Below are positions 1,317 through 43,436 of a DNA stretch of 52,803 bases, in pieces. The DNA is from a virus (lineage: Duplodnaviria; Caudoviricetes). The notes under the pieces are model-generated. The model saw nothing but the letters and a program-made list of their open reading frames with translations, made no database searches and was not told the DNA's origin. Location: positions 1-52,803 of IMG/VR virus record IMGVR_UViG_3300036781_000147; one strand, 5' to 3'. Numbering within the stretch: position 1 is the stretch's first letter; every line of letters begins with the position of its first letter. The translations under genes and the position numbers were made by a program.

Positions 1317-1903
1317 TGGGGGCCGCACCTTCCCTCCCTGCCGCACCGGTCGTCCACCCCCACCCCGTCCGGGTAGTGGGGGTGGACCCGTCTTTGACAT
1401 CCACGGGCGTGAGCGACGGGCGCCGCACTCAGGTCGTGTCCTCCGCGTACAAGGGCGAGGACCGACTCAACGATCTGGTCGACCAGCTGATCCCGTTCAT
1501 TGAGTCTGCCGACCTTGTGGTCATGGAGGCGCCCGCGTGGTCTCGTCAGGGACAGGCGCACCATGAGGACCTGACGGGGCTCAGGGTGATGCTCCGCTGC
1601 CTCATGACTCGTCGGCTGACCCCTTTCACCCTCGTCACCCCCAGCAACCTGAAGCGGGCTGTCACAGGCAACGGGTCGGCCGTCAAGCAGACGATGGTCG
1701 ACCACCTGGACCACATGTACGGGCTCGGGCTGTCGGAGTTCAAGGTGTCCCACGGACGCTACGACCGGGCCGACGCGCTGGGTCTGTCGGCCATGGGCTA
1801 CCAGGGACTGCACCAACCGTTGCAGCTGCTGCCCGACTCGCGTGGTCTATTGCAGTCGGCGGTCGACGTCGTGCAATGGCCAACCCTGGCAGTCCGAACC
1901 TGA
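1316..1903 (+). CDS. ruvC: RuvC-like Holliday junction resolvase
   Basis: VVGVDPSLTSTG, LVVMEAP, GNGSAVKQTM and DRADA acidic motifs. Confidence 0.9.
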   Translation: MGAAPSLPAAPVVHPHPVRVVGVDPSLTSTGVSDGRRTQVVSSAYKGEDRLNDLVDQLIPFIESADLVVMEAPAWSRQGQAHHEDLTGLRVMLRCLMTRRLTPFTLVTPSNLKRAVTGNGSAVKQTMVDHLDHMYGLGLSEFKVSHGRYDRADALGLSAMGYQGLHQPLQLLPDSRGLLQSAVDVVQWPTLAVRT

Positions 1904-1951
1904 CGGTCCCAGCGCTGGTCAGAGCCCGTTGCATGTCTGCAACGGGCTCTG

Positions 1952-1980
1952 TTGCGCCTACTGTGCAACTCATGTACAGT
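1952..1980 (+). promoter_or_regulatory. Promoter overlapping GTTGCG-N7-TGCAAC operator
   Basis: TTGCGC-N17-TACAGT. Confidence 0.65.
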
Positions 1981-2017
1981 CCTCTGTGTGGGGCCGACCG
2001 GTCCCGTAGGGAGAGAC

Positions 2018-2194
2018 ATGAACAAGATCGTTGTACTCACAAACGTGACCACCGTCGTCACGGTGACCCTGGCCATCCTCACGCTCTTCGGCATTCTGGT
2101 CCTGCCGACCCTGGTGTACGTGGCGTTCGTCCTCATCAGCACGGGCAACGTCATGCTGCAGCTCTCCGAGATTCAGCGAAGGAACAAGCAGTGA
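2018..2194 (+). CDS. Small membrane protein
   Basis: AGGGAGAG RBS; two hydrophobic segments. Confidence 0.7.
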   Translation: MNKIVVLTNVTTVVTVTLAILTLFGILVLPTLVYVAFVLISTGNVMLQLSEIQRRNKQ

Positions 2195-2385
2195 TGGGCG
2201 CCGTCGCTGGTCGCATCGCGGGCCGGACGATGGTCGTCCTCGGAGCGATGGCGGCGCTGCACACGGTGCCCCTTCCCTGGGTGCTCAGCTCCGGCGTGCC
2301 GAGCGGCATCTTCGTACTGCTGACCGTCAGGGCATGTGAGGTCGCCGATGAGCGAGCGGCGGAGGCGTCCCGTGTCGGTGCGTAG
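2194..2385 (+). CDS. Small membrane protein
   Basis: TGATG coupling; hydrophobic. Confidence 0.6.
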   Translation: MGAVAGRIAGRTMVVLGAMAALHTVPLPWVLSSGVPSGIFVLLTVRACEVADERAAEASRVGA

Positions 2386-2578
2386 CAAAGACGTCAGGAA
2401 GCTGCTCGCCACCCTGGAGGACCACGGCTGTACGGTCGTCCTGGGGCGGGGCAGCCACTACCGGGTGACGCGACCGGGCTACCCCAAACCGGTCTTCTTC
2501 TCGTCCACCCCGAGTGACCCGAGGGCGCTGGACAACATGATCAGCGATGCACGCAAGTACCTGGGCGTCCGCCTCTGA
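2378..2578 (+). CDS. HicA-like toxin (dsRBD-fold mRNA interferase family)
   Basis: KDVRKLL..LEDHG...GRGSHYRV...STPSD pattern, ~66 aa. Confidence 0.7.
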   Translation: MRSKDVRKLLATLEDHGCTVVLGRGSHYRVTRPGYPKPVFFSSTPSDPRALDNMISDARKYLGVRL

Positions 2579-2622
2579 TTCTCGTGATGCAGGGACCACT
2601 CGCGACACGGCTCACAAAGGAG

Positions 2623-2814
2623 ATGACCACGGCCATGACGGACCGGGAACGGATCATCAACGCCCTCCGCAACATCGCCCCGGGACATCCCACGGGCCGC
2701 ATCTGGGGCCGCTCCCGGGACGCGACGCCCCTTCAGGCGCAGGAGGGCAACGTCTGGGCAGGCGACGTGGAAGACCTCGCTGACCTGATTCTCTCCGCTC
2801 TCCATCCCGAGTGA
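2623..2814 (+). CDS. Hypothetical protein
   Basis: ORF with AAGGAG RBS; start uncertain (2623/2635). Confidence 0.6.
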   Translation: MTTAMTDRERIINALRNIAPGHPTGRIWGRSRDATPLQAQEGNVWAGDVEDLADLILSALHPE

Positions 2815-2867
2815 CTCGCGGGCAACAGCCCCTGCAACGGCTGACGCACAAACCGTTGCAGGGGCTG

Positions 2868-2896
2868 TTGCATAGGTGCAGCAACACGTGTACAGT
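2868..2896 (+). promoter_or_regulatory. Promoter overlapping GTTGCA-N7-AGCAAC operator, within a hairpin
   Basis: TTGCAT-N17-TACAGT; CCAACCAGGGAGAG leader follows. Confidence 0.7.
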
Positions 2897-2934
2897 CATC
2901 CTCGCCAGCACAGCCGACCAACCAGGGAGAGATC

Positions 2935-3252
2935 ATGCCGGGATACCGACCTGCCAACCGGGGCAACCGGACACCCAACCGGGTGGGCACCGTCGTCAGC
3001 CGCCGCCTGCGGGCGGCCGGGGTGAACGTCAGCCCCTCTGCCCGCAAGTACCGCTGCCCGGGGATCTTCGTGTCCACGATGGGCAGCTACACGAGCATCA
3101 TGATTGACCTTCTCAACGACGCTCAGAACGACGCTGCGGCGGATGACATCCTGTCCGTGATCCGCGACATGGTCCAGGTGGTTGACCCTTACCTGTCCGG
3201 CCGGGAGAACAGCGGGGACCCGCTGTACGTACGGTTCGACTACAAGGTCTGA
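2935..3252 (+). CDS. Hypothetical protein
   Basis: Strong RBS, own promoter. Confidence 0.75.
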   Translation: MPGYRPANRGNRTPNRVGTVVSRRLRAAGVNVSPSARKYRCPGIFVSTMGSYTSIMIDLLNDAQNDAAADDILSVIRDMVQVVDPYLSGRENSGDPLYVRFDYKV

Positions 3253-3351
3253 GACAGTGCGCCACCCCGCCGTCCCTGACGGACCATCCGTTGCAGGGGC
3301 TGTTGCATGCAACGGCTGCAACAGCCTGGTTGAAATGCTTGGTGCAAGGTC

Positions 3352-3381
3352 TTGCATCACCAATGCATCTGTGGGTATGAT
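3352..3381 (+). promoter_or_regulatory. Promoter for the spd/tra-like genes
   Basis: TTGCAT-N18-TATGAT with TTGCA-N7-TGCAT. Confidence 0.6.
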
Positions 3382-3459
3382 GCTTATGCAGCACAGGGGG
3401 AGTGGCCCGGCGGATCAGACCCTGACCACTCCCCACCAAACGAGAGAGGATACGACGTC

Positions 3460-3795
3460 ATGGCGAACGGCAACAGCAAGTCGGTGAACCTGAGCACGCG
3501 GGGCACGATGGCTGTTGCAGCCGTTGCGGCGTCCCTCGTCGTGATCGGCAGCCTGGGTCACCCGGTCTCTGCGGTCGGCCTCGCTGCGGCCCTGTTCTAC
3601 CTGATTCACAAGGGCCACGTAACCGGCTCCCGTCGTCGCAGCACTCGCAAGAACGGCAAGGTCCTTTGGGTCCTCGGATGGTCCATGGTCGCTGCTGCAC
3701 CTCTGCTGGCCACCAACGGATGGGCCAACCCGATCATCGGCCTCGCCATTGCGGCGAGTCTCGCAACGGTCCTGCTGATGACCCGCAACGTGTGA
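3460..3795 (+). CDS. Small 4-TM membrane protein, Spd (spread)-like
   Basis: Four hydrophobic helices with a basic loop; directly upstream of the conjugal transfer membrane protein. Confidence 0.65.
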   Translation: MANGNSKSVNLSTRGTMAVAAVAASLVVIGSLGHPVSAVGLAAALFYLIHKGHVTGSRRRSTRKNGKVLWVLGWSMVAAAPLLATNGWANPIIGLAIAASLATVLLMTRNV

Positions 3796-3853
3796 CTGCA
3801 ACACCCGACGCACCATCCCGCAACACCACATCTGACCTGGGAAGGAACCTGCA

Positions 3854-4846
3854 ATGGACCGAACCGACACGATGGGCAAGGGACAGATTTTCGTTCTTGC
3901 CGTCGCCACGATCCCGATGGCGGCCGTGGGCATCGCAGGTGCCTGGGCCACCTACCACAACCTCAACGGCGTTCTGCACAACGCGGCGTCGTCCATGGGC
4001 CTCGTCGCTGCTGGTGAAGGTGCCACCTTCATCTGTGCCCTGGTGGCCCTCTCCCTCACCCTGATGGGCCAGCACACGCCAACCGTGGTGCGCTCCGCCC
4101 TGTGGCTCCTGCCCATGCTGGCGGCAGGGGTCGGCGTCGTTCTCGCCCCCGACACAAACCACGTGGTCATCATGGGTGTCACTCCCATGGCCATGACTGC
4201 GGCGGGTGAGGGCGCCGCTCTCGTCGCCCGCCGGGTAGTCGCTTACCGAACCGGTGTCGACCTTGAGCAGATGCGTCGTACGGGCCTTCTGGTCTGGCAT
4301 GCCAACCGGGCACAGAACGGCAACTCCCTGGCCCGCCTCGTCTCCCGCCTCGCCGTGTGGCGGATCACCAAGGCTGTGGCCAGCACGGATGCGTCTCTCG
4401 TTGCTCAGGTCCGGGACACCGCCGTATTCCGCATCCACGAGAGCGCGGACGTGAACCTGTCCGCGATCCTGGGTGGAACGGCTCGTGGCCCCAAGGAGCT
4501 GTCTGCACGGGCCGCTGAGAGCCTCGCGTCCCTTCCCCCGGCTCCTGTAGCCACCCCGACTGCTGAGGCCGTCACAGAGCCGCTCACGGCTTCCGACGAC
4601 GAGCCGGAGGACGACGGCTACAGCTTCATCACCGACGTGCTGGGCGAGGCTGCCGACAACATCGAGTCAGACCCAGACCCCATCCTCCTCACCGCGAGCG
4701 AGGCGGCTGCCCAGAAGGGTGTCTCGGTCAACACGATCCGCTCGTGGAAGAGTCGGGGTCAGCTGGTGGAGCACAGCAAGGACGCGAACGGGCGCTCCCT
4801 GTTCACCGCGTTCGCCGTCTCCGCCGCCCCGACCAAGGACAGCTGA
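3854..4846 (+). CDS. Streptomyces plasmid-type conjugal transfer/spread membrane protein (SpdB/TraA-like) with C-terminal HTH
   Basis: N-terminal TMs with AAGEGAT, LTLMGQHTP, TPMAMTAAGEG..VARRVV motifs recalled from Streptomyces plasmid transfer proteins; C-terminal LTASEAAAQKGVSVNTIRSWKSRG HTH. Confidence 0.75.
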   Translation: MDRTDTMGKGQIFVLAVATIPMAAVGIAGAWATYHNLNGVLHNAASSMGLVAAGEGATFICALVALSLTLMGQHTPTVVRSALWLLPMLAAGVGVVLAPDTNHVVIMGVTPMAMTAAGEGAALVARRVVAYRTGVDLEQMRRTGLLVWHANRAQNGNSLARLVSRLAVWRITKAVASTDASLVAQVRDTAVFRIHESADVNLSAILGGTARGPKELSARAAESLASLPPAPVATPTAEAVTEPLTASDDEPEDDGYSFITDVLGEAADNIESDPDPILLTASEAAAQKGVSVNTIRSWKSRGQLVEHSKDANGRSLFTAFAVSAAPTKDS

Positions 4847-4887
4847 GCGGGAGCGAGGGGCCCGGCCGCTTCGGTGGCTGGGCCCCT

Positions 4888-4916
4888 TTGCATGTGGTCT
4901 GCAACTCGACTACAGT
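4888..4916 (+). promoter_or_regulatory. Promoter overlapping TTGCA-N7-TGCAAC operator
   Basis: TTGCAT-N17-TACAGT; CCAACCAGGGAGAG leader. Confidence 0.7.
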
Positions 4917-4945
4917 AGGTCTCACCAGCCAACCAGGGAGAGCTC

Positions 4946-5119
4946 ATGTACGTGATCGTGAACCAGGTCAACGGAGTGACGGCCTGGGGGCCGTACGACA
5001 ACGAGGATGACGCGTAGCGCCAGTTCGACCGGATGGGCTTGGACGATCTGGACTACGACGTGCAGGATGCGTGCTCCCGCCACCCGGACATGCCCCGCTC
5101 GAACTGTCCTCACCATTGA
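4946..5119 (+). pseudogene. Small gene interrupted by in-frame TAG (5015-5017)
   Basis: MYVIVNQVNGVTAWGPYDNEDDA*RQFDRMGLDDLDYDVQDACSRHPDMPRSNCPHH*; own promoter, RBS and downstream hairpin. Confidence 0.6.
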
Positions 5120-5135
5120 TCTACACAGAGTGATC

Positions 5136-5165
5136 GCAACCCCCGTGCTTAGGTGCGGGGGTTGC
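5136..5165 (+). terminator. Intrinsic terminator-like hairpin
   Basis: GCAACCCCCG...CGGGGGTTGC stem followed by TT. Confidence 0.6.
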
Positions 5166-5212
5166 TTCCGTTCCACCCCCGCGTACCCGACCCTGTACGA
5201 GGGAGATCACTT

Positions 5213-5328
5213 GTGGACGGCAGAGCCCCCTTCCGACCCCCGTCCACTGGCTGAGAATGTGGATCAAGTAGGGCGAAGTGGACGCACGTCAACCCCTCTG
5301 GACGAGCAATGGACGATCTCTGTGGACG
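5213..5328. repeat. (G)TGGACG short-repeat cluster upstream of traB (candidate clt or operator)
   Basis: Copies at 5213, 5241 (rc), 5278, 5298, 5309, 5322 plus variants at 5259 and 5287 (rc). Confidence 0.65.
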
Positions 5329-5407
5329 GGGTTCCCGACATGGTATGATGATGTTGCACCGTATGTATCACTCACAGCCGACGACCACTCACAGTGAGGA
5401 GAAGGAC

Positions 5408-7450
5408 GTGCCGGACAACGACACCATCCATCTGATCACCACCTTGCCCATCAACGAGCCAGACGTCCCGCCCCCGTCCATGGGCGAGCGAGGCCGCGCC
5501 GTAGCCGACCGCGTCCGCACCGCGCTGGACACGGCAGGCCTGCCGTTCGTCTTCCTGGCTGAGCCGTGGAAGCGGAAGAGCGACCGCAGGAAGTCTCTCC
5601 GCACCTCCGCCAACCGGGACGCCATGAGGGAGGCGAACATCGCTCTACGGGCCGCTCACGCACAGCTGCGCAACGACCAGGCGGCGCACGAGCGTGCCGC
5701 CCGCGATTCCGAGCGGGGCAAGAACCTGCCCAAGTGGTTCGACCAGGGGGTCCTGAACAACGGCCTCCTCAACCGCGAGCGTGCGTCAGCCCGACGAGTG
5801 GTCCGGGACAGCCGGGCCCTGGTGAAGGACGCGGAACAGGACGCCCGCGCCGCGAGGAAGAACTACCCGCAGACGCTGCGCCGTCTCGCAACGAAGATCC
5901 ACCTGTCCGCGTTCGCCACCTCGTCGGTGATCGACCTCGTCTCGGGTGGATCACCGCTGGGCCACGCTCTCGTTGCAGGGTCTGTTGCAGCCATTGCATG
6001 CAACACTATTGCGGTCCCGCTCGGTCTGCGTCACCTCCGCAATGCAACAGAGCCTGCAATGCCTGCAACAGAGCCCGACGTGTTGCAGCCGACGCAGGAG
6101 GAAGCCGAGCTGTTGCAGCGGCTGGAGCCGCTCACGTTCGCCTCCCTGGCGGAGGAGAGGAACATGGCCGACGTCGTCTGTGCCGGGGGCAACCTCACCG
6201 ACTCCGGGATTCAGGCAAAGCTGACATTGCAGGGGACGATGGACCTCGCGACGCTGAAGCGCCGCGAAGCTCACCTGCGTGCCGTACTGCGGCTCAAAGA
6301 GGGGACCCGGCTGGAGCTGAGAGACGGGTCCACCGGTGGTCACGCACGGCTCACCCTGCGGACCCGCTCCAAGTCGGACAGCGTGACTCTCACTGGGTGG
6401 CAGCCGGGCGACGCGTGGGGGGTCAACACGGTCACAGGTGAGTCGTTCTCCGTGCTACTCGATCGGCACATGTTGATCGCCGGGACGACTGGGTCCGGAA
6501 AGTCGTGGTCCGCTCGCCCTCTCATGGCGGAAGCGAGTGCCCGTGACGATCACCGTCTGATCGTCCTCGACATGAAGCGGATTGAGGCACGGTTGTGGTC
6601 CCACCGGGCCCGTATCGCCATCACCGCTGAGGAGATTGACGAGGTACTGGCGGAGCTGGTGGACGAGATGTACGAGCGGCTGGACTTGATCCCGCGCGGT
6701 CGTGACACAGTGGAGATCTCTCCGGCCATGCCTCGGATCATTGTGTTCGTGGACGAGGGTGGCGAGCTGATCTCTGAGTCGAAGCGGGCCCGCTACGACG
6801 AGGAGGGCAAGGCGTACAAGATGACTTCTATCTTGGAGAGTCTGATCACTCTCTCTCGCCTCGCTCGTGCGGCGGGTATTGTTCTCATCTGGGCGACCCA
6901 GAAACCGTCCCTATCCGGCAGCACTCCGGGACTGGACACTTCGATCAGTCCGAACCTCACCCGCCGGGTGGGGCTCACGACGGACAACGAAACGGAGTCG
7001 AGCGTCGTCTTCTCTCCCGAGATGGTCAGCAACGGGTGGAAGGCCCACCAGCTTCCGCTGCATGGGTGGGCTCTGATCAAGGACGACGTGACCTCCCGGC
7101 CGGACCGGTGCCGTCTGCGGGCCATCAGCCCTCAGCAAGTCGTGGACCTGCCCGCCGGGCAGGAGTGGCACCGTGACAGCGGGCGCCCCAGCGACCCGTG
7201 GGGCCACGGGTCGGCGACGGACATCGAAGCTCGGCAGGCGATCGAAGATCCTCAGCCGGTACGTATGTCCGCTGAGGAGCGGGACAAGCAGGTGTACGTG
7301 GCACTGGTGGCTGACCCGTGCGTCTCGCTCTCGTCTCTGGCCAAGCAGTTGGGGACGGGGAAGTCCACGATCTCCAACGCGCTGTCCCGTCTGGAAGCCG
7401 GGGGACTGGTGACTAAGGACGCTGACGACTGCTGGAACCCGGTCGGCTGA
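5408..7450 (+). CDS. traB: TraB-like FtsK/SpoIIIE conjugative DNA translocase
   Basis: Two N-terminal TM segments, HMLIAGTTGSGKS Walker A, IIVFVDEGGE Walker B, LARAAGIVLIWATQKP, C-terminal winged helix (SLSSLAKQLGTGKSTISNALSRLEAGGLV). Confidence 0.9.
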   Translation: MPDNDTIHLITTLPINEPDVPPPSMGERGRAVADRVRTALDTAGLPFVFLAEPWKRKSDRRKSLRTSANRDAMREANIALRAAHAQLRNDQAAHERAARDSERGKNLPKWFDQGVLNNGLLNRERASARRVVRDSRALVKDAEQDARAARKNYPQTLRRLATKIHLSAFATSSVIDLVSGGSPLGHALVAGSVAAIACNTIAVPLGLRHLRNATEPAMPATEPDVLQPTQEEAELLQRLEPLTFASLAEERNMADVVCAGGNLTDSGIQAKLTLQGTMDLATLKRREAHLRAVLRLKEGTRLELRDGSTGGHARLTLRTRSKSDSVTLTGWQPGDAWGVNTVTGESFSVLLDRHMLIAGTTGSGKSWSARPLMAEASARDDHRLIVLDMKRIEARLWSHRARIAITAEEIDEVLAELVDEMYERLDLIPRGRDTVEISPAMPRIIVFVDEGGELISESKRARYDEEGKAYKMTSILESLITLSRLARAAGIVLIWATQKPSLSGSTPGLDTSISPNLTRRVGLTTDNETESSVVFSPEMVSNGWKAHQLPLHGWALIKDDVTSRPDRCRLRAISPQQVVDLPAGQEWHRDSGRPSDPWGHGSATDIEARQAIEDPQPVRMSAEERDKQVYVALVADPCVSLSSLAKQLGTGKSTISNALSRLEAGGLVTKDADDCWNPVG

Positions 7451-7461
7451 CCGCCCCCCGA

Positions 7462-7508
7462 CAGAGCCCCGTGCAGAGGTTGCACGGGGCTCTGCTCTGT
7501 GCCATACT
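7462..7508 (+). promoter_or_regulatory. Combined terminator hairpin / promoter
   Basis: 14-bp stem with GAGGT loop; TTGCAC-N17-CATACT. Confidence 0.7.
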
Positions 7509-7542
7509 CGTGATGCACCGAACACCAAGGAATCGAGGGGAC

Positions 7543-7734
7543 ATGGCAACAGGGAAGTACGCAATCGGGGACGTCGTCCAGCACGTCCTGTCACTGCGCA
7601 TCGGAACGATCGAGGAGGTGGCCGACGATCGGTTTGACACCTACGGAGTCAGCTTCGCTGACGGCGTCCGGCAGATACAGCCCATTAACCTCGTGCTGGT
7701 CATGCGGGCCAAGGAGGCGAATGAGTGTGGCTGA
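7543..7734 (+). CDS. Small SH3/KOW-like hypothetical protein
   Basis: YAIGDVVQH...IGTIEEV...YGVSF pattern; GAGGGG RBS. Confidence 0.7.
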   Translation: MATGKYAIGDVVQHVLSLRIGTIEEVADDRFDTYGVSFADGVRQIQPINLVLVMRAKEANECG

Positions 7735-8137
7735 GTACCGCAACTCACGGCGAGACATCAAGCGGATGCTGTCCGAGGTCAAGGACGGTGACGAGGTGTG
7801 GGTGATTCGTCGCAACAAGATCACTTACCCGGGCGCCCCGCATCAGTACGCGTGGGGGTACGACGTCAAGGAACTGAGAAGCTTCGGTGGCTACAAGCTG
7901 TACGTCGACCACACCCTCACGCTGGAAGCTCTGCTCACCGAGTGCGGCACGATCTACACCTCCAAGCCTGCGGGCGTCTGGGACATCTCCGAGCCTCTGC
8001 CCAACGTGGCCGACCCGAACGAGGGCCACAAGGGCGCCCGTCAGCTGAACGACCGGGAGCTGGACCGCCTGGGCCGCGAGGAGAAGCGCATACGCGAGGA
8101 GCGGCGCAACCAGCGTCGCGGGTTCCGCCGGATCTAG
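7721..8137 (+). CDS. Hypothetical protein
   Basis: AAGGAGG RBS; GC3-biased ORF. Confidence 0.75.
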   Translation: MSVAEYRNSRRDIKRMLSEVKDGDEVWVIRRNKITYPGAPHQYAWGYDVKELRSFGGYKLYVDHTLTLEALLTECGTIYTSKPAGVWDISEPLPNVADPNEGHKGARQLNDRELDRLGREEKRIREERRNQRRGFRRI

Positions 8138-8146
8138 GGAGAGATC

Positions 8147-8434
8147 ATGAACAAGCGCACCGCCGCGCTTGGGGCAGCTGCCCTCGCGGCTGCCGTCACG
8201 CTTACCGCGTGCACAGGGATGGACGATCGGAGCGTCCATGGAACGGTGAAGGACAAGTCGGAGCACTACTACTCGGGCGTCACAGCTGGCAAGGTGCACA
8301 CGTCCGGCCACTGGGAACGGTACGTGTACGTGGAGGATGCTGGGCGTGAGGTACGTGTCCAGGTCTCCAGCCAGGCGTACGACCGGTGCTACCGGGGCAG
8401 CTCGTACCCGCACTGCCTGGACGTCAAGCGTTGA
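8147..8434 (+). CDS. Lipoprotein
   Basis: Signal peptide with LTAC lipobox; AGGGAGAG RBS. Confidence 0.8.
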   Translation: MNKRTAALGAAALAAAVTLTACTGMDDRSVHGTVKDKSEHYYSGVTAGKVHTSGHWERYVYVEDAGREVRVQVSSQAYDRCYRGSSYPHCLDVKR

Positions 8435-8445
8435 CCTGGTTTGTA

Positions 8446-8494
8446 CAGAAGGACCTGTGCAGAGGTTGCACGGGTCCTTCTGCTGTGCCATGAT
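8446..8494 (+). promoter_or_regulatory. Combined terminator hairpin / promoter
   Basis: Stem with same GTGCA-GAGGT-TGCAC core as 7462; TTGCAC-N17-CATGAT. Confidence 0.7.
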
Positions 8495-8524
8495 GGGTGT
8501 AGCACCTACCACTAAGGAGAGGTC

Positions 8525-9062
8525 ATGAGTGAGTTCAAGCGGGGCCAGGCAGTCCAGCACGAGGACGGGACGCGGGGAGTTGTAGAGTTCCGTGGCAGCG
8601 ACGAGTACTACGGAGTTCGCTGGGCGGAGACCCGCCTCACCCACGTCGCTGGGTACATCGTCGTGATCCACGGGGGTTCCCTCACCGAGGCCGCGCCGTA
8701 CATGCCCCTGCAGACCCTGCTGGAGCGCAAGGACGAGGAGGCCGAGGCGGCAGAGCGGCTCATCGATTCCGTGACGTTCCGGGACGGGGCGGGCCAGGTG
8801 ATCGAAGAGCACGATCTGACTACGGGCGATCTGTGGGCCGACGCCGATGAGGAAGCCGTGAGCGTGCCTGGGGCAGCCCAGGAAGCCATCACAGGCTCGG
8901 GTGACGGGGGATGGACCGTCCTCGTGCCGGACGTTTTCTCTGAAGGTGTATGGACCGTCATCGCTTCCTTCCCCCCTGCGTTGCTCCGCCGATGCGGTCG
9001 CGGAGTTGCTGAGGAATGGCATCCTCCGGGTGGACAGCTCGGGCGGCATCGTCCAGTCGTAG
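8525..9062 (+). CDS. Hypothetical protein; natural end (TAG 9060-9062) reached only via +1 shift at the C6 run 8971-8976
   Basis: AAGGAGAGG RBS; the +1 frame reads LRCSADAVAELLRNGILRVDSSGGIVQS* with GC3 bias, ending just before a terminator. Confidence 0.6.
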
Positions 9063-9073
9063 TCCGTACAGCA

Positions 9074-9110
9074 GGAAGCCCCGACCATGTACATATCGGT
9101 CGGGGCTTCC
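9074..9110. terminator. Hairpin between convergent genes
   Basis: GGAAGCCCCGACC...GGTCGGGGCTTCC 13-bp stem. Confidence 0.7.
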
Positions 9111-9127
9111 TCGTACCCAAGGCGAGA

Positions 9128-9574
9128 TCAGTAAAGCACACGAAGAACCTCACGCTCGGTGCGCTTCGGGTCGTCGTTCCAGTGGGCGATGTTCGGCTGG
9201 CTCGGACCGTAGACCCTGTGGATACGGACCATGAGCTCCTCTGCCGCCTCACCCGCGACCTTGCTGTTGGCGGCTGCCCGGTCGATGGCTTCCAGCGCGC
9301 AGACGGCGCCGGTATCCGGGTTGGTCCTGCCACCCCTGAACCAACCCAGTTCGTTGATCAGCTCACGGGCCAGGGTGAGGGTCGTGGCAGCAGTCGTCCC
9401 GGTGTGCAGGGGGATCGGCTGGCGGTGCGGGAACGTGATCATGTCGTCCACTTCCACAGTGGAGATGTCCACAGAGCTGTTGCCGAGCCGGACGTCCATG
9501 GCGATGTGTGCCAGGGCCAGACGGGTGTCGATGTCCATGTGGGTGGATGTGTTGGTCTTGCTGCGTGTATTCAT
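9128..9574 (-). CDS. DUF6197-like hypothetical protein
   Basis: INELGWFRG...GAVCALEAI...IAHWNDDPKRTEREVLRVL motif. Confidence 0.75.
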   Translation of the reverse strand: MNTRSKTNTSTHMDIDTRLALAHIAMDVRLGNSSVDISTVEVDDMITFPHRQPIPLHTGTTAATTLTLARELINELGWFRGGRTNPDTGAVCALEAIDRAAANSKVAGEAAEELMVRIHRVYGPSQPNIAHWNDDPKRTEREVLRVLY

Positions 9575-9757
9575 GCCCCTACCATACCCGTTGCATCACG
9601 TGCAAGGCAACTCGGTGACATACGAAAGGCGGGGCCCGCCGTAGCGAACCCCGCCTTCCTGCACCTTGCCCACCTGCCGGAACCGAGAGAGGGACGACCC
9701 CAAGCCTACCAGCGCGGCCCGATACCCTGGGATCACGGAACAGAGAGGACGTACACC

Positions 9758-10213
9758 ATGACGAACGTAGCGGAGGAAGCTTCGGCCGCCGACCGCCGCG
9801 ACCGCGCGCTGAAGCTGCGAATCCGTGGCGCGCACTGGAACGAGATCGCCAAGCGGTGCGGGTACCCGTCCCCGGGTGCCGCCCTGAAGGATGTGGGCGA
9901 GGCCCTGATCGACTCTGCCCGGCGGGCGGAGGAGTCGGCCGACCAGCTCAGGGCGACCCTCATGCTCAGCTACCAGGCACTCACAGGCGAGGCGTGGGAT
10001 GTCATCGACGGAGCGAGCAGCGATGCTCCGCCGTACGACCCTGAGGGCGGCTCTGCACCGGACGAGCGCATGGTGAAGCTCCGCGCCATCGATGAGGTGC
10101 GCCGCCTGACAGAGGCGCAGTCCAAGCTGTCCGGCCTGGACAAGCAGCGCGAGGTAACTGAGACACCACTTCGGGTAGAGATCGTCGGCGTGGACCCTGA
10201 GGACATCGTGTGA
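9758..10213 (+). CDS. terS: Terminase small subunit
   Basis: HTH (ALKLRIRGAHWNEIAKRCGY), SKLSGLD motif, overlaps TerL start. Confidence 0.8.
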   Translation: MTNVAEEASAADRRDRALKLRIRGAHWNEIAKRCGYPSPGAALKDVGEALIDSARRAEESADQLRATLMLSYQALTGEAWDVIDGASSDAPPYDPEGGSAPDERMVKLRAIDEVRRLTEAQSKLSGLDKQREVTETPLRVEIVGVDPEDIV

Positions 10214-11589
10214 ACGACGTCCAGGTCATCACCCGCTACGAGCCACGCGGGGCCGCAGTAGACCTCCTGACGGCCCGGGACTCCGAGGTAGTGGCTTCGG
10301 GCCCGGCGGGCACGGGGAAGACGCTGGCGGCCTTGTGGAAGGCTCACATCACGTCGATGAAGGTCCCTCGCTGCACAAGCCTCATCCTCCGCCAGACGCA
10401 CGCCTCGTTGACCGCATCGACACTGGCCACGTTCGAGAACCAGGTGGCAGGCTCAGCTCTGCTGGACGGCACGGTGAAGTGGTTCGGTGGCTCGGGTAGG
10501 AAGCCTCCGGCCTACGAGTACAGCAACGGCAGTACGATCATCGTCGGAGGGCTCGACTCGCCGGGGAAGTTCCTGTCCATGGACGTGAACCGGATCTATG
10601 TGGACGAGGCGTCACAGATCAGCCTCACCGCGTTCGAGACTCTCCTCACCCGTCTGCGCGGCCGGGCGGACACCTACCGGCAAATCGTGCTGATGACCAA
10701 CCCGGACCATCCTGCCCACTGGATCAACGAGCGGGCGGCTGAGGGGAAGCTCCGCATGATCAAGTCGTTGCACCGGGACAACCCGTACCTGATCAACCGG
10801 GACGGGTCTCCGACCGACGTCGGGACTGACTACCTGGGACGGCTCGACGCTCTGACCGGGGTTCGCCGGTTGCGCTACCGAGACGGGGTATGGGCGGCGG
10901 CTGAAGGTCAGGTGTTCGACGAGTGGACCGATGCCGCCAACCTGGTCGACCCCCACGACATCCCGGCCGACTGGCGCACCGTGTGGTCCATCGACTTCGG
11001 CTACAGCAACCCGTTCGTCTGGCAGCAATGGCGCATCGACCATGACGGCCGGGCGTACCTGACCCACGAGATCAGCCGGACACAGCGGCTCGTGGAGGAC
11101 CACGCGCGGGACATCCTCGCCCTCATGTCCGCGAACGGGTGGGCGCGGCCGGAAGCGATTATCTGTGACCACGATGCGGAGGGACGGGCCACGCTGGAGA
11201 GGCACCTCGGCATGGCCACCCTGGCTGCCCGCAAGAACGTCACAGCGGGCGTGCAGCACGTGCAGAACCGCATCCGCCCGGCGGGCGACGGACGGCCCCG
11301 GCTGCTCGTGCTGAGGGACAGTCTGATGCGTACGGACCCGAACGCGGCCACGGACAAGCGGCCCCGGGGGTTCGCGGCGGAGGTGGGTGGATACGTTTGG
11401 GCGATGGAGCGGGGCACCGACGGCAACCCGAAGGAAGTGCCGCTCAAGCTGCACGACCACTCCATGGACGCGGCTCGCTACCTGGTGATGTACCTGGACG
11501 GGGTTGCACCCCGCCGGACCCACAACCCGGCCAAGGCACAGGTGGGTGGAGCGACTTCCAGTAAGTGGGGCACCGCAGTCGGCCGGTAG
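10210..11589 (+). CDS. terL: Terminase large subunit (PBSX-like)
   Basis: SGPAGTGKT Walker A, IYVDEA Walker B, MTNP motif, SIDFGYSNP and DHSMDAARY nuclease motifs. Confidence 0.95.
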   Translation: MNDVQVITRYEPRGAAVDLLTARDSEVVASGPAGTGKTLAALWKAHITSMKVPRCTSLILRQTHASLTASTLATFENQVAGSALLDGTVKWFGGSGRKPPAYEYSNGSTIIVGGLDSPGKFLSMDVNRIYVDEASQISLTAFETLLTRLRGRADTYRQIVLMTNPDHPAHWINERAAEGKLRMIKSLHRDNPYLINRDGSPTDVGTDYLGRLDALTGVRRLRYRDGVWAAAEGQVFDEWTDAANLVDPHDIPADWRTVWSIDFGYSNPFVWQQWRIDHDGRAYLTHEISRTQRLVEDHARDILALMSANGWARPEAIICDHDAEGRATLERHLGMATLAARKNVTAGVQHVQNRIRPAGDGRPRLLVLRDSLMRTDPNAATDKRPRGFAAEVGGYVWAMERGTDGNPKEVPLKLHDHSMDAARYLVMYLDGVAPRRTHNPAKAQVGGATSSKWGTAVGR

Positions 11590-28181: not shown

Positions 28182-28215
28182 TGTACCTACTACAGAGCTG
28201 ACGTGTCTCGATTCA

Positions 28216-28678
28216 CCGTTACCTTCTCGTTATCTACCCCTCGCTGACCCCCTTCAGGATGTCCGTTTCTGCCCTGGTTTGGAAGGCACGGGGGTAGTTT
28301 TGGGAGCAGTTTTGGGAACGGCAAAAACCTGCTCTGACCTGGGAGAACAGGTGAGGCGGGGGTAGTTTTTCGGGGGAACCCACTCCAAATTCCTACAGTG
28401 AATAGGAAATGGCGATCATGAAACTACCTCTTCTCATGTGCACGCGCGCGTACGCGTAAGAAGTACACCCTGTCAAGATCAACAAATCTCGTTCACTGTA
28501 GGAATTTGGAGTGGGTTCCCCCGAAAAACTACCCCCGCCTCACCTGTTCTCCCAGGTCAGAGCAGGTTTTTGCCGTTCCCAAAACTGCTCCCAAAACTAC
28601 CCCCGTGCCTTCCAAACCAGGGCAGAAACGGACATCCTGAAGGGGGTCAGCGAGGGGTAGATAACGAGAAGGTAACGG
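28216..28678. repeat. Giant palindrome: 187-bp arms (28216-28402, 28492-28678) around an 89-bp spacer
   Basis: Arms are reverse complements on direct reading; internal GGGGGTAGTTTT and GTTTTGGGA sub-repeats. Confidence 0.97.
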
Positions 28679-33642: not shown

Positions 33643-35595
33643 ATGCTCAACGACTACCTTGCCGTGGGAGACAACGAGGTGGCAAACCATGCCCGCCTCG
33701 CCACCTACATGAACGCGCTGGGGTCCCCGTTCGACTCAGGTTCGGCTATCTGCAAGTGCGACACGCTGACGGCTGAGATCCTGGGCGACGCGCCGTACAC
33801 CCTGCCGGACGACCCCGACAACCCGGCTCCCTGGTACGACCCGAACGTCCCGGAGTCAGGTCAGTTCCTCGGGGTGATGATCCTGACCGTAGACGGCGAT
33901 TCCACCTACCCGCAGAGCCGCACCGTGTCCACCTCGGTCGGGGGTGTCGGCTCCCTCGGGCCCACCCGTACCGACCCTCGTCCGATGACCTTCACCGCAC
34001 TGCTGCTGGGCACCACGTGTTGCGCCGTTGCGTACGGATACCAGTGGCTGACGCAGGCGTTGCAGCCCGCTGATGCGGACTGCAACGGCCAGTGCGCCTA
34101 CCGCTACAGCTGTTGCCCTGACGAGGGGCAGACAGCGGACCAGTTCAACGCGGCCTACCGCCGCACCTACCGCCGCGTAGCGCTCACCAGCGGGCCGGAC
34201 ATCACCGCGCGGCACGGCAACGGCGGATGCGGGCAGGGCGGCGCCGGATGTGGCATGAATGCCGACATCGTCACTGTGGAGTTCGGTCTGACCGCCGGGT
34301 CCCCCTGGGCGTGGGGCGACGAGCAACCTCTGCTCGATATCTCCCTGCCCACGGACGACGATGAAGACTGCCTCGTCTGGTGCCTGCCCAACTCGACTGA
34401 CCCCGAGTGCATCGAAGCGGGGCCGTGCCATGGCGGCAACTGCCCGCCGGTCGGTGAGCCGTGCACCGACAGCCACTGCAACTACCCGGACCCTCCGGTT
34501 CCCGGGTCGGCGTCGTCGTGCTTCTGCATCCCGCTCGCGGCCAACCGGGCGTGCTTCGATCTTGACCTGTCCACCCGGCCGCGAGCGGTGCCCTCCGCCC
34601 TGGTGATGGAGTTCTTCTCCGGCACGTACGACCTGCGCAACGCAACGATCAGTTTCTACAAGCGGTCCTCTGCCTATGACCCCACGACTGAGGGGGTGTT
34701 CGCTGACCAGTTCGAGCGGTCGCAGACCTCCGGTTGGGGCACGTCGGACAGTGGTCTGCCCTGGACTAACACAGGCGGCACGGCCGTCAACTTCAGCGTG
34801 AGCGGTGGCCAGGGCCATCACCGCCAGTCGCCCGCCGCCGTACTGCGTGAATCGTCTGTGCCGTTCGTCCAGCAGGACATCGACATCTACTACGACATGT
34901 CGTTCGACGCGTGGCCGACCACCGGCAACCTCTACGCTGCTGCCTCGCCCCGCTGGGCCGACACGGACAACAACTACGACGTGACGCTGCAGATCGACCC
35001 CCTGGGCAATGTCCAGTACTACCCGACGATCAACGTGGGTGGGGTGCAGCAGGACCCGGCGGGGTTCGTGCACATCCTGGACGGCACGCCTCCTCCCGGC
35101 ACCACCTTCCGGGTGCACTGGCAGGTGACGGGGAACGACTTCGCCGTGTCCGTGTGGGACATCCGCACGTGTGAGCCGACCGAGCCCGTCTTCACCTTCA
35201 CCGACGATCAGGTCCCCGTGAGTGCGGGCATCGCCGTGAAGTCCTTCTCTGACTCCGACATTGTGCCCCACGTCGATTTCGACAACATCCACACCAACAG
35301 TGACGCTGCCCTCACGTGTGATCAGATCAGCGAGTTGGCCGACCCGTGGCTGCAGTACAATGTCAACTTCCTGAGGGACAACTCGACTCTCACCCTGGAC
35401 GGACAGGTGGGCCGGGCCATGCAGGAATGCGGCGGGGTGTGCTCTCCGTCCACCTACGTGTTCGGGTACGAGGGTTCGCCGCCGCAGTGGCCCGTGCTGC
35501 CCTCCGAGCCCATCTGTGTGTGCGTGGAGACCAACGCCCTGGTGACCCCCTCGGAGAACGCGACCCTTTCCATCCGCACCTCGGGGAGGTACTGA
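33643..35595 (+). CDS. Minor tail (distal tail-like) protein with beta-rich insertion
   Basis: YLAVGDNEVANHAR, APWYDP motifs; follows tape measure. Confidence 0.8.
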   Translation: MLNDYLAVGDNEVANHARLATYMNALGSPFDSGSAICKCDTLTAEILGDAPYTLPDDPDNPAPWYDPNVPESGQFLGVMILTVDGDSTYPQSRTVSTSVGGVGSLGPTRTDPRPMTFTALLLGTTCCAVAYGYQWLTQALQPADADCNGQCAYRYSCCPDEGQTADQFNAAYRRTYRRVALTSGPDITARHGNGGCGQGGAGCGMNADIVTVEFGLTAGSPWAWGDEQPLLDISLPTDDDEDCLVWCLPNSTDPECIEAGPCHGGNCPPVGEPCTDSHCNYPDPPVPGSASSCFCIPLAANRACFDLDLSTRPRAVPSALVMEFFSGTYDLRNATISFYKRSSAYDPTTEGVFADQFERSQTSGWGTSDSGLPWTNTGGTAVNFSVSGGQGHHRQSPAAVLRESSVPFVQQDIDIYYDMSFDAWPTTGNLYAAASPRWADTDNNYDVTLQIDPLGNVQYYPTINVGGVQQDPAGFVHILDGTPPPGTTFRVHWQVTGNDFAVSVWDIRTCEPTEPVFTFTDDQVPVSAGIAVKSFSDSDIVPHVDFDNIHTNSDAALTCDQISELADPWLQYNVNFLRDNSTLTLDGQVGRAMQECGGVCSPSTYVFGYEGSPPQWPVLPSEPICVCVETNALVTPSENATLSIRTSGRY

Positions 35596-41010: not shown

Positions 41011-41050
41011 GCTGTGTCCCCTCTGCTCGGTGAGTGCTGTACGGCAGACG

Positions 41051-41083
41051 CTACAGGGGTTGCACCCACATCACAACCCCTGT
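41051..41083. repeat. Degenerate copy of cassette palindrome/promoter
   Basis: CTACAGGGGTTGCAC-CCACA-TCACAACCCCTGT. Confidence 0.8.
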
Positions 41084-41089
41084 TCCTCG

Positions 41090-41641: not shown

Positions 41642-41756
41642 GAGTATCACCCTACCCGCACATGCACCCGGCACACAACACCGCACCCCCTGGCCCAGGG
41701 AGTGGCCAGGGGGTGCGGTGGAGCACGACAGCTCTTGTTACCGGTGTAACTCTACC

Positions 41757-42032: not shown

Positions 42033-42088
42033 CGTGTCTCCTTCGTGACGGAGAGGGACCATTTCGATCCCTTTCCAGCGGGTGTGGA

Positions 42089-42442: not shown

Positions 42443-42476
42443 CGTGTCTCCCTGGTCTGTCGTGCTGACAAGAGAA

Positions 42477-42524: not shown

Positions 42525-42533
42525 AACTTCGGA

Positions 42534-42893: not shown

Positions 42894-42897
42894 GGTC

Positions 42898-42974: not shown

Positions 42975-42982
42975 TCCGCGTA

Positions 42983-43360: not shown

Positions 43361-43364
43361 GACC

Positions 43365-43432: not shown

Positions 43433-43436
43433 CGAA

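Follow-up and report, generated by a model that had tools for sequence, protein, structure and literature searches.

Plasmids of Streptomyces provide described counterparts of the phage locus analyzed here. In pSVH1, a membrane-associated FtsK-like hexamer, TraB, is combined with DNA-binding integral membrane Spd proteins such as SpdB2, a logic that resembles the one proposed below. TraB is described as reading 8-bp repeats via helix 3 of its C-terminal winged helix (PMC4447253, PMC4170104, PMC3583192), and the clt sites of Streptomyces plasmids are reported to be arrays of 5-9 bp repeats beside or within tra (PMC3583192); the same source quotes the pIJ101 clt pentamer as G[C/A]AAC. Tra (KilA) of pIJ101 from S. 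lividans (NC_001387, 3897-5843) consists of an N-terminal helical region, a membrane segment, an FtsK motor with a TQKP motif, and a C-terminal winged HTH. Transfer and particle genes also occur together: the plasmid-phages pZL12/phiZL12 and pFP4, like the pZL12-like pSLE1, are single replicons that encode phage particles as well as an FtsK-type transfer region, and pZL12 and pFP4 are described as conjugating and also forming particles (PMC4170104). For Spd homologues carried by phages, a role in 'spreading of phage DNA' has already been suggested (PMC4447253), and we found no experiments on any member of the phage family discussed here in the searchable literature.

Module architecture

The window, i.e., the whole 52,803-nucleotide stretch analyzed (IMGVR_UViG_3300036781_000147; 52.8 kb, GC 65%), is a near-complete tailed-phage genome. 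Genes for terminase, portal, MuF-like head protein, major head, head-tail adaptor, major tail, tape measure, minor tail, and endolysin were detected beside a full replication gene set. This terminase-to-endolysin series and a CheckV completeness estimate of 88% bear out the preliminary description of a complete virion-encoding phage. Six-frame scans of the window revealed no integrase, resolvase, or GntR/Kor repressor, and no partition protein was found among 46 ORFs scanned with Pfam. The window resembles the plasmid-phages in combining particle and transfer genes, yet the latter are about 85-90 kb in size and carry ParAB, integrases (PMC4487206), and a GntR regulator, which the window lacks. 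All three genes of the module at 3460-7450 lie on the plus strand where the preliminary description had placed them, and a lipoprotein gene follows:

3460-3795, + strand: small membrane protein, 111 aa (hydropathy, phrog_20083)
3854-4846, + strand: Spd-like membrane protein, 330 aa (Pfam, phrog, hydropathy, plasmid matches)
5408-7450, + strand: tra, pIJ101-type dsDNA translocase (Pfam, alignment, model, trees)
8147-8434: small lipoprotein with weak Cor-like similarity, just 3' of the module

The longest tra ORF (5309-7450) encodes 713 aa and gene callers start at 5363; alignment with relatives and an GGAGAAGGA ribosome-binding site indicate that the true start is likely GTG 5408, yielding 680 aa. 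From its N terminus, Tra consists of coiled-coil helices, a membrane segment at nt 5966-6022, the FtsK alpha/beta motor, and, at 7271-7441, a winged HTH. Pfam FtsK_SpoIIIE matches with 35 bits (cut-off 24), two winged HTH families, HTH_24 and TrmB, score above their cut-offs at Tra residues 657-704, and the columns of the Walker A (GTTGSGKS, 6482-6505), Walker B (VFVDEG, 6743-6760), and TQKP motifs are invariant across 20 relatives. Of the intact FtsK/SpoIIIE ATPase proposed earlier, the motor and the C-terminal winged helix are thus confirmed; in place of several N-terminal TM segments, hydropathy gives only one strong hydrophobic segment ahead of the motor, with a second helix before it in an AlphaFold model. 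In Foldseek searches, this model matched best to TcpA, the coupling protein of pCW3, and to the motor domain of FtsK (E 5e-14 to 1e-12). The likeness to FtsK/SpoIIIE and TcpA, also apparent from profile matches to PDB sequences, is a common motor fold and is confined to that domain at about 20% identity, whereas outside the motor, in its N-terminal half and winged helix, the protein is Tra-type.

The 330-aa protein begins with a four-TM domain (residues 1-215) of distant likeness to DUF2637; a linker rich in Pro and Ala joins this domain to an excisionase/MerR-type HTH at the C terminus (278-318). Its TM segments, three strong and one weaker by hydropathy, fall within residues 12-122. Pfam MerR hits the HTH with E 7.9e-5, short of the curated cut-off, HTH_17 and MerR_1 match 7/7 members of the family, and phrog_16651 matches the protein at E 4e-112. 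Fifteen Streptomyces phage records match at full length, and 35 Streptomyces or Kitasatospora plasmids match the N-terminal ~200 residues at 38-43% identity, including RefSeq 'conjugal transfer protein' entries and the pZL12-like pSLE1 (41.8% identity, E 6e-30), whose homologue lies within a GntR-headed transfer region. All three plasmid contexts inspected place the homologue within a GntR-headed string of small spd/tra-type genes, in agreement with the proposal of a plasmid-type transfer membrane protein with HTH. The small protein, whose ORF is open from TTG 3352, has four hydrophobic segments, two of them strong and two weaker (up to four helices), and matches phrog_20083 (E 1.1e-7). Salete gp68, in the same position and also 111 aa long, gives a weak BLASTP match (E 8e-4 over 33 aa). 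With no tblastn match in plasmids, the small protein is specific to the window's phage family, and neither module membrane protein resembles SpdA, SpdB, or KilB of pIJ101. The expected accompaniment by Spd proteins is supported for the membrane/HTH protein as a plasmid-type partner and not for the small one.

Relatives and origin of the module

Phage and pIJ101 Tra share the same order of parts and align collinearly along 650 residues, with 36% identity and an E of 8e-116. Two trees group the phage Tra proteins into a single clade (SH-like/SH-aLRT support 99-100) inside a 27-row group (support 99) of pIJ101-type plasmid Tra, the other rows being pIJ101, an S. silaceus plasmid, the 'tra protein' of Streptomyces sp. 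SPB78, and similar proteins. The window Tra has a long branch (0.72 vs about 0.2 for its neighbours), and its nearest relative is Xkcd426. Both the end-to-end alignment and the nesting support the earlier assignment to a Streptomyces Tra/TraB architecture rather than a generic FtsK, and Tra groups with plasmid transfer proteins, not with non-conjugative FtsK-like ATPases. pSVH1 TraB represents another subfamily, as the NCBIfam plasmid_TraB equivalog scores the window Tra at 25 bits, its cut-off being 800. We consider it highly probable that the module pairs a Tra of the pIJ101 type with a membrane protein of plasmid type. The transfer gene may have been captured from a small pIJ101-type plasmid by an ancestor of these phages, and the group has retained it alongside the Spd-like, DUF2637-like plasmid-type membrane protein and the small membrane protein. 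pIJ101 has a divergently encoded GntR repressor, KorA, and the window phage has none.

A survey of related phages, as the preliminary description had suggested, showed that the module is common to cluster BG/Woodruffvirus phages (TP1604, YDN12, Salete gp71/gp69, Xkcd426, Geonosis, and Mischief19 gp79/gp77) and IMG/VR loci. It is thus already present in GenBank phages, with database labels 'FtsK-like DNA translocase' and 'hypothetical protein'. BG and window proteins are 44-45% (Tra) and 47-54% (membrane protein, full length) identical, and the shared gene order is RuvC ... HicA-like ... membrane/HTH ... tra ... terS/terL, with the RuvC-like resolvase gene upstream of tra in the window. The membrane/HTH gene precedes tra in 7/7 IMG/VR loci holding at least 2 kb of upstream sequence and in Salete, Xkcd426, and Mischief19. 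Likewise, tra is directly upstream of terS-like and terL genes in 12/12 IMG/VR loci that extend past tra and show TerL; L022, which also extends about 10 kb past tra, shows neither. The window differs from BG phages (GC 69%, 56.5-64.5 kb) in GC content, size, and heptamer, shares no nucleotide-level similarity with them, and is unique in its recognition helix. We regard this soil phage as a distant relative of the cluster BG/Woodruffvirus phages of Streptomyces and probably as a virulent siphophage of a mycelial actinomycete; the cultured relative Geonosis is described as virulent, with quick culture collapse (PMC11536984).

Candidate cis-acting sites

The DNA around and within the module contains several repeats and signal-like elements:

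2841-2873, + strand: 33-nt element containing GTTGCAGGGGCTGTTGCAT (repeat D7)
4856-4887, + strand: GC-rich hairpin (I21), terminator-like, no T run, after the membrane/HTH gene
4887-4916, + strand: promoter-like TTGCAT-N17-TACAGT, read from sequence
5213-5328, + strand: GTGGACG array with three direct, one inverted, and one degenerate copy
5972-6118, both orientations: GTTGC/GCAAC cluster in tra, seven pentamers (six TGTTGCA heptamers)
7462-7494, + strand: perfect 14-bp hairpin (I10), terminator-like, 12 nt past the tra stop codon

Two of these, the heptamer array and the GTTGC cluster, are candidate cis sites that are new here. Four of the window's 38 GTGGACG copies fall within 116 bp upstream of tra. 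A TATGAT -10 box follows at 5342-5347, and the last copy of the array overlaps its -35 position. Relatives have another heptamer in the same place, and it switches together with the Tra recognition helix. Helix SKSVVKRRLDQME is associated with GGAACGG in clear arrays at 5/6 loci (TP1604, YDN12, L009, L013, and Xkcd426), the sixth, L015, showing one GAGAACGG copy in 114 nt of upstream sequence. Helix HKQT(V/A)KRSLDRLA is associated with GTGACGG at 4/4 loci, i.e., with 4-5 exact copies in L014, several (by eye) in L017, mainly a shorter core, TTGTGAC, in L019, and one copy within 39 nt in L018. The window-only helix GKSTISNALSRLE is paired with GTGGACG, even though Xkcd426 is the nearest Tra relative. 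This covariation amounts to only two independent switches, with relatedness not fully controlled. Because the heptamer changes whenever the recognition helix changes, the array is the best candidate docking site; the membrane protein keeps its HTH almost invariant across the same phages, so that this HTH cannot account for the changing heptamers. On these sequence comparisons, the GTGGACG array is a candidate site for the Tra winged helix that could act as operator, loading site, or both; given its overlap with the tra promoter region, it may be only an autoregulatory operator.

The GTTGC cluster inside tra is the densest 7-mer cluster of the entire window, with TGTTGCA occurring 17 times against 4.2 expected. 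None of 2000 synonymous recodings reached it, and rare codons spell it (GCA accounts for 6/9 Ala codons vs 10% in the window's genes), suggesting a candidate cis-acting site held against codon bias. In pIJ101, the clt pentamer is clustered where clt is known to lie, near korB (5 copies/150 bp), and it also clusters within phage tra genes; the window's candidate repeats thus differ in location from pIJ101 clt, lying upstream of and inside tra. GTTGCA also occurs in promoter-like intergenic elements and in clusters in an unrelated gene (33643-35595), and the motif may therefore have no connection with Tra.

Among the other elements, the hairpin at 4856-4887 was not listed by a terminator scan requiring a T run, and the hairpin behind tra has a second copy at 8446-8482. 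TTGCAT-N17-TACAGT recurs at 2868-2896 and TTGCAT-N18-TATGAT is found at 3352-3381; a consensus promoter scan of 2700-8600 returned 0 sites, the TTGCAT elements scoring under threshold. The GTTGCAGGGGCTGTTGCAT element has a 91% identical copy at 3276-3308, there extended to a palindrome (3290-3326, I2), and both copies are intergenic and ahead of module genes.

Proposed function and alternatives

The best explanation overall, which we favour tentatively as falling somewhat short of an even chance, is that a captured pIJ101-type Tra spreads phage DNA within the infected mycelium. Tra would be made late in a rightward transcription unit and, by analogy to pSVH1 TraB and FtsK, assemble as a membrane-anchored ring, while its C-terminal winged helix, as the covariation suggests, would recognize short repeats in the phage's own DNA. 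The motor could then pump replicated dsDNA of the phage through hyphal cross-walls into neighbouring compartments, and perhaps also into touching hyphae, with the four-TM/HTH protein forming a channel or tethering the DNA, the kind of role proposed for SpdB2. That moving phage DNA between compartments is the job of Tra is a possibility we hold with slightly greater reserve. A virulent phage has little time from DNA replication to lysis, which counts against spread, as do the missing GntR/Kor repressor, the dissimilarity of both membrane proteins to pIJ101 SpdA, SpdB, and KilB, the single strong hydrophobic segment, and the long Tra branch.

The preliminary description had envisaged a dual infection/conjugation lifestyle that bypasses receptor-based resistance. 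In its full form, naked phage DNA would pass by conjugation from an infected mycelium to a separate recipient one. The homology evidence is the same as for mycelial spread, pIJ101 Tra and clt are reported to be enough for intermycelial transfer (PMC3583192), and the double nature of pZL12 and pFP4 offers a precedent. However, the scans above found no integrase, resolvase, repressor, or partition protein, without which a donor could not persist, and with the virulence of Geonosis a dual lifestyle fits poorly; we consider it improbable, and spread inside the infected mycelium is the more economical reading. Interference with other mobile elements, by exclusion of superinfecting phages or resident conjugative plasmids or by hijacking of plasmid clt sites, is very unlikely: the lipoprotein with weak Cor-like similarity would speak for it, but PADLOC defence families gave no match beyond generic P-loop similarity, and virulent phages form no lysogens that would need protection.

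Two further alternatives leave Tra without a role in intercellular transfer. Tra and its membrane partners might take over the host by arresting growth or disturbing septation or chromosome segregation. Streptomyces plasmid transfer and spread genes are described as slowing the growth of recipients, visible in the form of pocks (PMC4447253), the phage lacks the GntR repressor by which plasmids keep tra in check, phage ftsK genes are currently read as 'manipulation of cellular development' (PMC10117723), and a WhiB-like regulator is encoded at 41757-42062. Killing would need neither an intact winged helix that co-switches with phage repeats nor ATPase motifs conserved family-wide, and we judge this explanation unlikely. 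A role in phage DNA metabolism, in which the translocase resolves or segregates concatemers or feeds them to packaging and the repeats are pac-type or replication sites, appears distinctly unlikely. The position of tra directly upstream of terS-like/terL in the TerL-showing loci and the upstream RuvC-like gene point in its direction; BG genomes are circularly permuted, implying headful packaging from a pac site (PMC5511901), and repeat clusters in a gene near terminase would suit pac. Against it, Tra retains, over its full length, the N-terminal half near the membrane that typifies conjugative Tra, is accompanied by a plasmid-type membrane protein, and nests with plasmid transfer proteins instead of chromosomal FtsK or terminases, and a complete terminase is already encoded.

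Since cultured Streptomyces griseus phages carry the module, the idea of mycelial spread is testable. If it is true, infection would reach past the compartment entered by the virion.

A conjugation-type gene module in a tailed phage

The window, 52,803 bases long, comprises an entire IMG/VR virus record that is classed as linear, has a GC content of about 65%, and is estimated by CheckV to be 88% complete. Pfam and PHROGs scans identified a rightward block encoding the terminase large subunit (TerL), ThyX, portal, a MuF-like head morphogenesis protein, and major head and major tail proteins, along with a head-tail adaptor, tape measure, minor tail proteins, and a GH25 endolysin. A leftward block contains genes for a WhiB-like regulator, HNH endonuclease, exonuclease, family A DNA polymerase, D5-type primase, and SNF2-type helicase. 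At the left end, a further rightward block carries a RuvC-like resolvase, a HicA-like protein, and the module of interest, whose three genes lie exactly where the preliminary description had placed them. ARAGORN found no tRNA genes in the window.

Features of the module and its surroundings
3460-3795, + strand: small membrane protein, 111 aa, with up to four hydrophobic helices (hydropathy)
3854-4846, + strand: membrane/HTH protein, 330 aa, with four hydrophobic segments in the first 125 residues, a Pro/Ala-rich linker, and a C-terminal helix-turn-helix (HTH)
5309-7450, + strand: tra, FtsK-type ATPase, longest ORF, likely start GTG 5408 (Pfam, alignment of relatives)
5972-6118, inside tra: GTTGC/GCAAC cluster, candidate cis site
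10210-11589, rightward block: terminase large subunit (Pfam and PHROGs scans)

The likely start of tra was assigned to GTG 5408 because the aligned relatives begin at this position with the consensus MxDxFDTP and because a TATGAT -10-like box (5342-5347) and a ribosome-binding site, GGAGAAGGA, fall inside the longer ORF. The Tra protein matches PF01580 (FtsK/SpoIIIE) with 35 bits against a cut-off of 24, and its Walker A (GTTGSGKS) and Walker B (VFVDEG) motifs occupy invariant alignment columns. A C-terminal winged helix at residues 657-704 scores above the cut-offs of both HTH_24 (23.0 vs 21.9) and TrmB (26.0 vs 25.6). An AlphaFold2 model made from 20 relatives (mean pLDDT 73.6) contains long helices in its N-terminal part, a pair of helices at 190-240, an alpha/beta motor, and, at the C-terminus, a winged domain of three helices and a beta wing modeled with a pLDDT of about 90. 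In Foldseek, this model came closest to TcpA, a conjugation coupling protein, and to FtsK motor domains. One strong hydrophobic segment and a second helix in the model may provide N-terminal membrane anchoring.

Tra belongs to the pIJ101 subfamily

A tblastn search of PLSDB with Tra hit 262 plasmid records, with 80% or more of the protein covered in 7. The Streptomyces plasmid pIJ101 and small plasmids from Streptomyces ranked best, with 36-38% identity. BLASTP aligned residues 66-706 with residues 18-634 of the pIJ101 transfer protein (237/650 identical, E 8e-116), so that the likeness spans the N-terminal half and the winged helix and not the motor alone. The family is small, with 68 cluster representatives at E values up to 1e-30 among 1.84 billion. 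A word-index search returned 111 relatives with scores in two tiers: the first comprises about 77 proteins at 487-609 bits, among them those of YDN12, Abt2graduatex2, and Xkcd426, and some of its contigs measure 52-70 kb. The second runs from 348 bits down, comes from contigs only a few kb long, and has plasmid proteins and a 'tra protein' among its members.

The phylogeny suggested in the preliminary description was inferred in two ways, with FastTree from 104 rows (three plasmid proteins, 20 proteins of the first tier, and every second-tier or representative protein with 550 aa or more) and as a quick IQ-TREE tree from 46 rows hand-picked to represent each clade; both were rooted with outer family members and not with FtsK. 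First-tier phage Tra proteins form one clade in both trees (20/20 and 9/9 rows, support 99-100). The best named match of the sister clade is the translocase of Mischief19, a further phage with the module (41% identity, 89% coverage), and this clade's unnamed rows are of possible phage origin. Together, the two clades nest with a support of 99 in a group whose other members are pIJ101-type proteins. The NCBIfam equivalog for plasmid TraB, NF041214, scored 25.4 bits with Tra, in the P-loop region only, vs a curated cut-off of 800. Since pIJ101 Tra likewise lacks a match, NF041214 defines another subfamily, and the window protein classifies by sequence as a pIJ101-type Tra, not as TraB in this narrow sense. 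The earlier label "TraB" thus holds for the conjugative Tra family, given the full-length collinearity with pIJ101 and the nesting, and fails for the NF041214 subfamily.

One of two membrane proteins has plasmid relatives

The N-terminal 200 residues of the membrane/HTH protein matched 35 plasmid records (34 Streptomyces, 1 Kitasatospora) at 38-43% identity, none of the alignments reaching into the HTH. Some of these homologues are annotated in RefSeq as 'conjugal transfer protein', one of which gave a BLASTP E value of 2e-31 with the window protein. In each of the three contexts inspected among the 35, a divergent GntR regulator heads a run of small genes that includes the homologue, and a large ATPase follows in two of them. 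One of the three is pSLE1, which its authors describe as syntenic with the plasmid-phage pZL12 (PMC4487206). The HTH of the window's protein stays below Pfam cut-offs; HTH_17 and MerR_1 match all seven family members. DUF2637 (PF10935) matches one of seven phage family members (E 4.8e-5) and not the window's own copy.

For the small membrane protein no match was found in plasmids, and neither membrane protein resembles pIJ101 SpdB, KilB, or SpdA (BLASTP E 0.18-0.74). The term Spd module is therefore fair, by homology and context only, for one of the two, the membrane/HTH protein. A complex prediction for Tra 55-290 with residues 1-215 of the membrane/HTH protein, using an alignment for each, gave a score of 0.00 (mark 0.32) and is uninformative either way.

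The module is conserved across a phage group

Among GenBank phages, Tra matched 165 records, and in 12 the match covers 80% or more of the protein; Xkcd426, Salete, and Abt2graduatex2, among the matches listed at this coverage, are Streptomyces phages of Woodruffvirus (cluster BG). The other matches cover the P-loop region only and include Bacillus phages and Mycobacterium cluster J phages. The membrane/HTH protein matched 15 phage records, all from Streptomyces phages and all at full length. At the nucleotide level, megablast of window positions 3300-7500 returned no phage match. An IMG/VR scan with the single Tra protein yielded no relatives, and an alignment-based scan yielded 16 loci. The membrane/HTH gene precedes tra in all seven loci whose contigs hold 2 kb or more ahead of tra. 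Of the 16 loci, all 12 that extend past tra and show TerL have a terS-like gene and terL after tra. Three loci end directly after tra, and one, L022, continues for about 10 kb without a terS-like gene or terL. The same neighborhood occurs in Salete, Xkcd426, and Mischief19, the last with tra inverted, and close relatives of the module are present in the cultured S. griseus phages TP1604, YDN12, and Geonosis. The proposed survey of related phages thus located the module across BG phages, Mischief19, and IMG/VR loci, and marks it as an old, fixed part of this phage group. A BG module gene is already deposited under the name 'FtsK-like DNA translocase', and the cluster BG announcement does not mention the module (PMC5511901).

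Several neighboring features were recorded alongside. The HicA-like protein at 2336-2578 matches Pfam below the cut-off (E 1.4e-5) and the PADLOC HicA-like profile at E 2e-7; no HicB-like partner was recognized beside it. Salete and 7 of the 16 IMG/VR loci carry such a gene ahead of the module, and Mischief19 annotates a HicA-like toxin there. It is found in 6/6 loci holding at least 4 kb upstream of tra and is missing from locus L016 (2.4 kb upstream). The gene before terL (8525-10213, 562 aa) shares only its last 130-180 residues with relatives and combines a terS-like C-terminus, which PHROGs calls 'RNase E', with a long lineage-specific N-terminal part. L022 (59,862 bp) derives from a more distant phage whose Tra-like gene encodes 648 aa at 33% identity; about 1 kb downstream, at 4140-4460, some twenty TGAGACG/TGGGACG copies are packed into 350 bp in both orientations, which could be another clt- or iteron-type repeat array, clt being a cis-acting transfer locus.

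A heptamer array changes together with the Tra recognition helix

In each lineage, a cluster of one heptamer lies within about 120 bp directly upstream of tra. In the window this heptamer is GTGGACG, with 4 of its 38 copies at 5213-5328; GGAACGG takes its place in TP1604, YDN12, Xkcd426, and the IMG/VR loci L009 and L013, and GTGACGG in loci L014, L017, L018, and L019. The spacers between the copies are conserved. Sorting by the Tra recognition helix gives these three classes again (GKSTISNALSRLE, SKSVVKRRLDQME, and HKQT(V/A)KRSLDRLA), the window's helix being unique among the 38 relatives readable by pattern (39 others did not fit it). Xkcd426 is the window's nearest relative in the tree, yet has the BG helix and the BG heptamer; helix and heptamer therefore switched together twice, once in the window and once in the L014 group. 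Because both elements switch together while the HTH of the membrane protein is almost invariant in these phages (GTVRSW), Tra is a candidate reader of the heptamers; two switches in related genomes are suggestive and do not constitute proof. An autoregulatory site is an equally simple reading, as the last heptamer copy overlaps the -35 position. We did not find this array in print. A KOPS-like polarity of GTGGACG was considered, but its orientation follows the coding strand (19+/7- in rightward genes, 3+/5- in leftward genes) and is hence uninformative.

A second candidate cis site lies inside tra

TGTTGCA occurs 17 times in the window vs 4.2 expected, and GTTGCAG 22 times vs 6.9 expected, 14 of the 22 within 1819-6118. 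The window's densest 7-mer cluster, six TGTTGCA copies in 135 bp in both orientations, is located inside tra. Here the motif spans different reading frames and uses rare codons, with GCA encoding 6/9 Ala vs 10% over the window's genes, and none of 2000 synonymous recodings with the gene's own codon usage reached the observed seven GTTGC/GCAAC in 150 bp. A pre-specified pentamer test was significant in 9/9 phage tra genes (P 0.033 or less) and in Mischief19 (P 0.032), and not significant in tra of pIJ101 or of an S. silaceus plasmid. As a control, the 14 window genes of at least 900 nt were examined: P was 0.000 for tra and for a tail-region gene (33643-35595), 0.023 for the terS-like gene, and 0.27 or more for the remaining 11. 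The tail-region gene has its own GTTGC/GCAAC cluster around 34019-34090 (5 copies per 150 bp; 0/300 synonymous recodings).

The pentamer matches the direct repeat quoted for pIJ101 clt in PMC3583192. In our scan of pIJ101, the sole GTTGC/GCAAC cluster (5 copies in 150 bp) adjoins a gene at the korB position. The motif also occurs within promoter-like TTGCAT-N17-TACAGT elements at 2868-2896 and 4887-4916. A 5-mer is short and recurs in these elements, and the cluster may serve as a Tra loading site, a site for the membrane-protein HTH, a pac site, or a promoter element.

Additional features of the genome

A consensus scan returned no promoter-like sites and did not list our terminator-like hairpins, so our promoter and terminator labels are a reading of recurring motifs alone. 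TTA (bldA) codons are absent from the module and number only two among the called genes, in 432-1316 and 7634-8137. The small ORF 4946-5119 has a good ribosome-binding site and a promoter-like element upstream and reads 23 residues, an in-frame TAG (5015-5017), and 33 further in-frame residues; gene breakage, read-through, or an error in sequencing could account for this. The gene at 8147-8434 encodes 95 aa with a lipoprotein-type signal (LTAC lipobox) and a weak PHROGs match to Cor-type superinfection exclusion (E 1.6e-4). Among the leftward early genes at 41036-43441, three to four intergenic copies of a 30-nt palindrome, ACAGGGGTTGCAC...GTGCAACCCCTGT, look like operators or terminators of that block.

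Between tail genes lies a 463-bp palindromic element (28216-28678; 206-nt arms, 96% complementary, 51-nt loop) with short repeats of the GGGGTAGTTTT type. Blastn against the phage collection returned nothing for this element, which may represent an origin, an assembly fold-back, or a MITE-like insert. Another copy bridges the two record ends (52616-52803 matches 28215-28402 at 98%, and 3-116 matches 28565-28678 at 97%), for which reason the record probably closes into a circle or a permuted genome with about 160 nt missing. Positions 1-135 are the reverse complement of 52598-52732.

Lifestyle and function

Six-frame scans of the 88%-complete record revealed neither a tyrosine integrase nor a resolvase-type recombinase, nor any GntR protein apart from Tra's own winged helix, and Pfam scans of 46 ORFs found no Par protein. 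Because of this incompleteness, the absence of Par, integrase, and GntR is not proven. The combination typical of pZL12-type plasmid-phages, Par or integrase with GntR-controlled transfer genes beside virion genes, was not found in the window. Without integrase, recombinase, and GntR regulator in these scans, the phage looks virulent, as is its cultured relative Geonosis (PMC11536984), although the record may be incomplete.

The hyphae of Streptomyces consist of separate compartments, and to our knowledge the path of a phage infection through the mycelium is poorly understood. The captured plasmid motor could move the phage's own double-stranded DNA across membranes, which in a virulent phage would most plausibly mean DNA movement across hyphal cross-walls during infection. 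A motor long kept intact, a plasmid-type membrane partner, and self-DNA repeats that track the DNA-reading helix make this the most economical reading, which we put forward tentatively and at somewhat less than an even chance. The true conjugation of phage DNA into separate recipients, proposed in the preliminary description as part of a dual infection/conjugation lifestyle, is a rival that draws on the same family membership, and the plasmid-phages pZL12 and pFP4 provide examples that both conjugate and form particles, as cited in PMC4170104. Tra might instead arrest growth or manipulate host development, the field's usual reading of phage ftsK genes (PMC10117723). A role in concatemer processing or packaging would suit the position of tra, which has the RuvC gene on one side and the terminase genes on the other. 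Interference with other mobile elements is a further alternative; a defense-system reading was rejected because PADLOC gave generic P-loop and HTH matches alone.

A wider form of the cross-wall reading is more doubtful, and we consider it rather unlikely as a whole: that a virulent Streptomyces phage lineage (the window, BG, and Mischief19-like phages) domesticated a conjugation motor, evolved its own repeats, and pumps naked replicating genomes into neighboring compartments and touching hyphae, a virion- and receptor-independent spread comparable to the cell-to-cell movement of plant viruses.

Conjugating plasmid-phages and the deposited BG phage genes were already known. New are a virulent non-plasmid phage lineage with a pIJ101-type Tra, the nesting of phage Tra inside a plasmid clade, and two candidate recognition sites, the heptamer array and the GTTGC cluster. 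We found no published link of these phage genes to Tra/TraB in a search that most subscription journals lay outside. If the function proves to be growth arrest or DNA processing, tra would be an ordinary accessory gene of interesting origin. Cultured S. griseus relatives and named candidate binding sites make the question directly testable. Should the captured motor push phage DNA across cross-walls, conjugation machinery would have been recruited by a virus without a plasmid stage, and plaque growth, containment by development, and receptor-based resistance would need to be rethought.
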